The position numbers and the translations under genes are program-made. Positions 1-371 of a stretch of DNA of 6,576 nucleotides are shown here, piece after piece. Under the pieces are notes generated by a model. It had not been told where the DNA came from. It ran no database searches and was given only the letters and a program-made list of their open reading frames with translations. Each line of letters begins with the position of its first letter. Position 1 is the first letter of the stretch. The stretch comes from a virus: positions 1-6,576 of the IMG/VR virus record IMGVR_UViG_3300027532_000102; one strand, written 5' to 3'.

Positions 1-127
1 GCTACACCCGATACTCACCCGAAGGGCGGAGACCGCTTGCGGGCTCCGTTCATGAGTAGCGGGACCAAACCTTTCTTCTCCACCGGAGACCTATGTCTAT
101 GCTCACCAAGGCAACACTTCTCAAATA
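1..127. repeat. Terminal direct repeat, copy 1 (overlap of a circular contig)
   Basis: Read base by base, 1-127 is identical to 6450-6576, so the non-redundant unit is 6449 nt. 127 is the largest default k-mer of SPAdes-type assemblers, the usual signature of a circular assembly. Confidence 0.95.
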
Positions 128-371
128 CCGCCAACTCATCATCGGCGTCCTTCTCGCCGCAGGCATCATGCTTCCCATGACTTCGTGCTCTCCCGTCGAG
201 AAAATCGTCACCCCTGAAATCATCGAGAACATCGTCGCCGGCGCAGCCCGCCCCGTCGTCAAAGCCTACCTCGACGACCACCGTGACGAACTCGAAAACA
301 TCAAGGACCTGCTCAACGACCTCCATGACGAAATCCACACCCTCAACATGGCGTTGGACCAGGTCTCTTGA
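93..371 (+). CDS. Small secreted lipoprotein with C-terminal coiled coil (Lpp / Braun-lipoprotein-like architecture), 92 aa
   Basis: GGAG at 85-88 precedes ATG 93 (4 nt) and ATG 99 (10 nt). The N-terminus MSMLTKATLLKYRQLIIGVLLAAGIMLPMTS-C has a basic n-region, a hydrophobic core and a lipobox-like MTSC with Cys32 at 186-188. The C-terminus ELENIKDLLNDLHDEIHTLNMALDQV shows 3-4 hydrophobic spacing. HTLNMALDQVS resembles QTLNAKVDQLS of E. coli Lpp (recalled). GC3 by hand count is about 76 percent in this frame versus about 61 percent for the codon-aligned antisense ORF 15-380. Stop TGA 369-371 overlaps TTG 368-370 of the Rep ORF. Confidence 0.7.
   Translation: MSMLTKATLLKYRQLIIGVLLAAGIMLPMTSCSPVEKIVTPEIIENIVAGAARPVVKAYLDDHRDELENIKDLLNDLHDEIHTLNMALDQVS

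Follow-up and report, generated by a model that had tools for sequence, protein, structure and literature searches.

Among microviruses, reports of protein E are confined to a few coliphage relatives (PMC12596118). A broad survey of microviruses mentions peptidase and amidase genes but no lipoproteins (PMC9239249), and in our searches of the literature we came across no account of a lipoprotein from phiX174-like phages. The small gene at positions 93-371 of the DNA analysed here, which is predicted to encode a lipoprotein, bears on how microviruses exit their hosts, and we asked what its role might be. The window, i.e., the whole stretch of 6,576 nucleotides, is one complete circular phiX174-like microvirus genome of 6,449 nt, as judged from a 127-nt terminal repeat. 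Eight further assemblies contain this genome, with ORF 93-371 unchanged, and the ORF is therefore not an assembly error. Besides this ORF, the window encodes a gene A-like rep (368-1678, plus strand), gpD (1683-2165), capsid protein F (2230-3555), presumed spike and pilot genes, and small antisense ORFs. Because its capsid is only 22-24% identical to those of phiX174-type phages and pequenoviruses, we regard the phage as branching deeply within the phiX174-like suborder of PMC9239249. GTDB genomes, searched by capsid and by leader pattern, contained no relatives.

ORF 93-371 is a real conserved gene. An exhaustive search identified an orthologue in genome L013 (59% identical, E 7e-27), located directly before rep, and three more distant homologues, in genomes that were fetched via their capsids (L009, L011 and L047), are also located directly before rep. 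A sixth genome, available as a protein-level record only, has an 84-aa gene at the same position. Residues Ser31, Cys32, His78 and His82 are invariant in the five-member alignment, and the mature parts are 17-27% identical between subgroups. Of the eight pairs that span two groups, six gave shuffle z-scores of 6-11, whereas L047 scored 2-3 when paired with L009 and with L011; these scores are inflated by the common heptad periodicity, so that position and architecture bear part of the homology argument. The differences between the window and L013 are distributed over the three codon positions as 28, 17 and 43 (dN/dS 0.30), and those between L009 and L011 are concentrated at third positions (dN/dS 0.13); the N-terminus of rep, used as a dN/dS control, gave an uninformative 0.77. 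Together, the orthologue, the position-matched homologues, the third-position bias and the two dN/dS values bear out the original prediction that this ORF is a gene, and its frame is kept in the homologous genomes. Within the family, the mature part is more conserved than the signal. The gene is absent from relatives at 40-45% capsid identity, and a profile run against 5.8 billion proteins recovered the five known members only. The lipoprotein family is new, with five or six members known.

The gene, on the plus strand, encodes 92 aa when translated from ATG 93 and 90 aa from ATG 99. The latter is the more likely start, because the Shine-Dalgarno-like GGAG sequence at 85-88 lies 10 nt upstream of it, and only 4 nt before ATG 93, and because public gene calls use ATG 99. 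The resulting Met-Ser-Met double start (93-101) is kept in L011 (5067-5075) and L013 (1899-1907). We considered that it might be a regulatory dual start like that of the lambda holin and rejected this, since the mature protein is identical whichever start is used, and since the arrangement is absent from two homologues. At the other end of the gene, the TGA stop codon (369-371) overlaps a TTG codon at 368 (TTGA, 368-371, plus strand), which we take as the start of rep because the orthologous rep N-terminus of L013 begins at an ATG that overlaps the lipoprotein stop. A GTGA overlap connects the two genes in L047. Translational coupling of the lipoprotein gene to rep had been proposed at the outset, and the stop/start overlap in the window, L013 and L047 makes it probable. 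A promoter-like sequence (TTGACA - 18 nt - TG-TACACC; 6428-6457, plus strand) that is conserved in L013 precedes the leader; it is below the threshold of the promoter scan, which at that threshold found no promoter before the leader.

A type II signal peptide is predicted at positions 93-185 (plus strand), composed of an N-region with a net charge of +3 and 18 uncharged residues, and the putative lipobox M29-T30-S31-C32 is encoded at 177-188. Cys32 (codon 186-188) is the only cysteine of the protein, and the +2 residue is a serine. The mature part of 61 residues has a net charge of -8 and contains a Pro-containing linker and then two helices. The first of these, at about residues 41-59 (213-269, plus strand) or reaching to about residue 62, is moderately amphipathic and comes from a low-confidence model. 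The second is an acidic heptad-repeat helix (residues 60-91; 270-365, plus strand) that contains the invariant His78 and His82 and has L60/H63, L67/I70, L74/L77, I81/L84 and L88/V91 at the heptad positions, in agreement with the C-terminal heptad coiled coil of the original prediction. The AlphaFold model has low confidence overall (pTM 0.32), with pLDDT values of 75-84 for the predicted helix 64-91, and the homotrimer prediction score of 0.02 counts neither way on the oligomeric state. The prolines (34, 41 and 54) are located ahead of the heptads, and proline makes up only 3-5% of the mature part. The maximum Kyte-Doolittle value of the mature part is 1.1, and there is no C-terminal transmembrane (TM) segment.

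All five members share the same architecture: a basic N-region (net +2 to +4), a hydrophobic stretch of 13-18 uncharged residues, Ser-Cys, and an acidic helix with four to five heptads. The lipobox-like MTSC that had been pointed out is thus backed by its N-region, its uncharged stretch and the invariant Ser-Cys, but the tetrapeptide itself fails the strict pattern [LVI][ASTVI][GAS]C and PS00013, and passes the relaxed G+LPP-type pattern only. The lipobox of L013 also passes the relaxed pattern only, those of L009 and L011 pass PS00013, and L047, with a canonical LVSC box, is the only member matching [LVI][ASTVI][GAS]C. Since Ser-Cys is kept in five of five members although the rest of the preceding hydrophobic stretch diverges, and since Cys accounts for 0.6% of the residues of this phage, the window protein is likely to be lipidated. 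In enterobacteria, lipoproteins whose +2 residue is not Asp are sorted to the outer membrane. Asp is never found at +2 among the five members, which would imply outer-membrane sorting, although the actual host need not follow the enterobacterial rule. We infer that the protein is exported and located in the periplasm.

The five members do not match LPP, Lysis_col, spanin, Llp/Cor, protein E or DUF6486. Searches of Pfam, PHROGs, NCBIfam and PDB sequences at permissive thresholds gave generic coiled-coil noise only, 50,697 phage records contained no match to the lipoprotein, the ESM Atlas gave nothing above 0.83, and a Foldseek comparison of the AlphaFold model with viral structures gave nothing. 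A likeness to the pilot protein was also considered, and no similarity was found. Like Braun lipoprotein, Lpp, the window protein has a type II signal, about 60 mature residues and a heptad repeat. However, Lpp forms a parallel trimeric coiled coil over nearly its whole mature chain, which the window protein does not fit: its heptads are limited to residues 60-91, the last half, starting 28 residues after the Cys, and it is strongly acidic. Moreover, the family lacks the C-terminal Lys, its members ending in S, S, S, G and G, and neither Pfam LPP nor solved Lpp chains were matched even at E up to 5-10. The original label “Lpp-like” is therefore not supported, and the resemblance is best described, from sequence comparison, as that of a generic short coiled coil behind a lipoprotein signal, with no homology to Lpp found. 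The suggestion of an o-spanin is not supported either. Rz1-type o-spanins and u-spanins are likewise phage lipoproteins, and the window gene is in a lysis-type position, but it has no partner i-spanin or endolysin, no C-terminal TM segment, a low proline content and no match to a spanin PHROG.

Three other groups of proteins deserve comparison. Typical bacteriocin release proteins have about 30 aa in their mature form, and colicin lysis proteins cause quasi-lysis via outer-membrane phospholipase A. The window protein resembles them (Lysis_col) in being a small lipoprotein from a small replicon, but it differs in that its mature part is about twice as long and helical or coiled-coil, and its gene is the first, not the last, of the operon. 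A small colicin lysis lipoprotein alone can bring about quasi-lysis (PMC9517006). Llp and Cor, which are also small lipoproteins of phages, have a well-established role in exclusion, T5 Llp being early; their genes lie beside the receptor-binding gene, and the proteins have an intramolecular disulfide (PMC9586334). They resemble the window protein in size (about 60 mature residues), and early expression is plausible for the latter; the differences are that a long distance separates the window gene from the spike gene and that four of the five members have no disulfide. Protein E of phiX174, an MraY inhibitor, comes from the same virus group, where it is likewise the single small membrane-targeted gene, and the window gene would answer the same need. 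Protein E, however, is overprinted in D and has an uncleaved N-terminal TM helix and a basic tail, whereas the window gene is free-standing before rep and encodes a predicted cleavable lipoprotein signal and an acidic tail.

ORF 93-371 is the only credible membrane-targeted gene of the window, and the same holds for the lipoprotein gene of L047; the other hydrophobic ORFs of the window are antisense shadows. The claim that a gpE-like gene is missing was confirmed: the out-of-frame ORF 1784-1993 inside the D-like gene has no hydrophobic segment (maximum Kyte-Doolittle 19-mer -0.49), and none of the alternative frames over gene D in the window and three homologue-bearing genomes is hydrophobic (maximum 0.91). 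No amidase or endolysin was found among the window ORFs, and no amidase gene call in the lipoprotein carriers that are readable in full.

The next-nearest relatives carry other envelope genes in the H-to-rep interval, which runs from the pilot gene to rep. In L010, whose capsid is about 50% identical to that of the window, a 40-aa TM peptide (weak Hol44 match, E 0.03) followed by an N-acetylmuramoyl-L-alanine amidase (Amidase_2, E 3e-8; PHROG amidase, 2e-17) lies directly before rep. Lone TM peptides occupy the slot in L049 (52 aa; 5046-5204) and L053 (41 aa; 4978-5180), the latter recalling phiX174 E in its TM helix, prolines and basic tail but giving no profile match, and L051 (124-336) and L054 (4857-5075) have small TM genes outside the slot. 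The small TM peptides of these four genomes are candidate single-gene lysis proteins in their own right. In L096, the pilot gene is immediately followed by a gene (798-1004) for a lipoprotein of 68 aa that contains Pro and Cys and whose lipobox, IAGC, is canonical. This lipoprotein has a weak Rz-like spanin match (E 0.37) and is unrelated to the family described here, the similarity being confined to the signal peptide; a 102-aa coiled-coil ORF without a TM segment (1136-1444) follows it. The simplest reading of these gene orders is that the H-to-rep interval may serve as a swappable envelope slot in this clade, with one exit module per genome, the module of the window being the lipoprotein. 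The capsid tree is weakly resolved, and the order of the slot replacements is not readable from it.

Because it is the only credible membrane-targeted gene, because E, amidase and endolysin genes were not found, and because the slot holds envelope genes in relatives, we favour the lipoprotein as a candidate for the single exit (lysis) gene of the window phage, with a chance that falls just short of even; both the lysis role and the molecular target are guesses. The lipoprotein gene would be the first to be transcribed in the rep operon, its product would build up in the envelope during infection, and this build-up would kill the cell and cause leakage, as colicin and bacteriocin release lipoproteins do. 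Alternatively, its acidic helices might jam a periplasmic envelope-biogenesis machine. Several points speak against lysis. The lipoprotein has no homology to any lysis family, its early, rep-coupled position fits exclusion equally, and, to our knowledge, none of the known single-gene lysis proteins of small phages is a lipoprotein. The H-to-rep slot may be just an accessory hotspot, as the antisense cassette is also there, and the slot argument is further weakened because an unambiguous lysis enzyme is found in one relative only (L010) and the TM genes of L051 and L054 lie elsewhere.

Lysis and superinfection exclusion both remain live hypotheses, as originally proposed, and comparative genomics tilts the balance from exclusion towards lysis. 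According to the exclusion hypothesis, the early lipoprotein would block the outer-membrane receptor from the periplasm or intercept the incoming coiled-coil DNA-pilot tube, thereby protecting the infected or carrier cell. The gene is indeed the first of an early operon, Llp and Cor provide a precedent (PMC9586334), the antisense regulatory cassette is compatible with a carrier state, L010 is a true prophage, and the rapid divergence of the mature parts suits a host-specific target. We nevertheless consider exclusion, the main rival, less likely than lysis, as the genome would then be left without a recognisable lysis gene. In addition, the disulfide and receptor-gene neighbourhood of Llp and Cor are missing, the spike of the phiX-like suborder binds LPS (PMC9239249), a receptor that a periplasmic protein could hardly block, the lipoprotein is not similar to the pilot protein, and the window, L013 and L047 contain no dif-like core. 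It is less likely still that lysis is due to something unrecognised and that the lipoprotein is a dispensable accessory that manipulates the host or reinforces the envelope (as an Lpp-like tether, a membrane anchor for replication or assembly, or an anti-phage defence): its patchy distribution and short coiled coil would agree with this, but a C-terminal Lys, homology to Lpp and an alternative lysis gene were all not found, and a periplasmic protein is unable to contact Rep. The least probable possibility, for which the non-canonical lipoboxes of four of the five members, the Pro at -4 in the window, the long N-regions of L009 and L011 and the lone TM peptides in the slot of L049 and L053 could be cited, is that the protein is unlipidated or slowly processed, its N-terminal helix staying in the inner membrane, where it would be toxic by inhibiting MraY, MurJ or the lipoprotein pathway in the manner of E or Sgl proteins, while the helices would serve for oligomerisation in the periplasm; yet a TM helix that binds a target should be conserved itself, and the opposite is seen here, with an invariant Ser-Cys at the end of a freely diverging hydrophobic stretch. 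Moreover, the box of L047 is canonical, and the mature part is the better conserved one.

If the lipoprotein is indeed a lysis protein, a wider proposal can be made, which we put forward tentatively and hold to be somewhat less probable than the lysis role itself: that phiX174-like microviruses replaced protein E by a lipoprotein that lyses alone via a periplasmic envelope target, that this arose at least twice in the clade (this family and L096), and that it is interchangeable with a holin-amidase pair. Lipoprotein lysis would then be a class of single-gene lysis that has no described example in any phage. Antibiotic targets, e.g., MraY, have more than once been revealed through single-gene lysis proteins, and a new target could be expected from a protein of this kind that acts in the periplasm. 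Five natural variants of one small gene and four unrelated slot occupants are available as material for lysis screening. An exclusion role would instead mean lipoprotein-based exclusion in a tailless ssDNA phage, of which we found no description in the literature.

With respect to the host, a lipoprotein had been taken as an argument for a diderm. This does not follow, because monoderms make lipoproteins too. A diderm, LPS-bearing host is nevertheless likely on other grounds, since the phage belongs to a spike-bearing, LPS-binding suborder and its relative L010 is integrated in a roseobacter replicon. The L010 element is a 6.1-kb phiX-like prophage (3575-9699) located between dif-like direct repeats. 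The replicon that carries it, of 159 kb, has genes that group with proteins of Ruegeria and Yoonia, and its KdsA shares 86% identity with the Tritonibacter protein. Provided that the long-read assembly is correct, L010 extends integrated phiX-like phages to Alphaproteobacteria. Dif-like sequences are also present inside the start of the rep region of L049 (5447-5474) and L053 (5277-5304), which suggests that these phages may be able to integrate too. L053 additionally has two tandem spike-like genes with similar C-termini (2720-4011).

The 5' leader of the window contains a conserved 57-nt stem-loop (7-63, plus strand; repeated at 6456-6512 owing to the terminal redundancy), which ends 29 nt before ATG 93. 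It is also present in L011 (4981-5040) and L013 (1809-1872), and not in L009 or L047. Moreover, at least nine unrelated viral contigs, most of them far larger and all without a microvirus capsid, contain it as well (L060, L061, L064, L071-L073 and L079-L081). Its core is GATACYCACCCGAAGGG, and it is often located at a point of divergent transcription. In an alignment of 12 copies, pairing is kept in 95% of the cells and compensatory changes are seen at six pairs, figures that lean favourable because the copies had been chosen by core pattern and filtered for pairing. The plus strand is favoured by G-U pairs that are invariant, and Rfam gave no match to the stem-loop. We regard it as a candidate new structured RNA or DNA signal, which may regulate the lipoprotein-rep mRNA or act at the DNA level. 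Finally, a bZIP-like antisense gene is kept in four of the five lipoprotein-bearing genomes (window, 5441-5701, minus strand; L047, 3231-3557; L013, 747-1196; L009, 1169-1456), the L047 copy scoring above the Pfam bZIP_1 cut-off.
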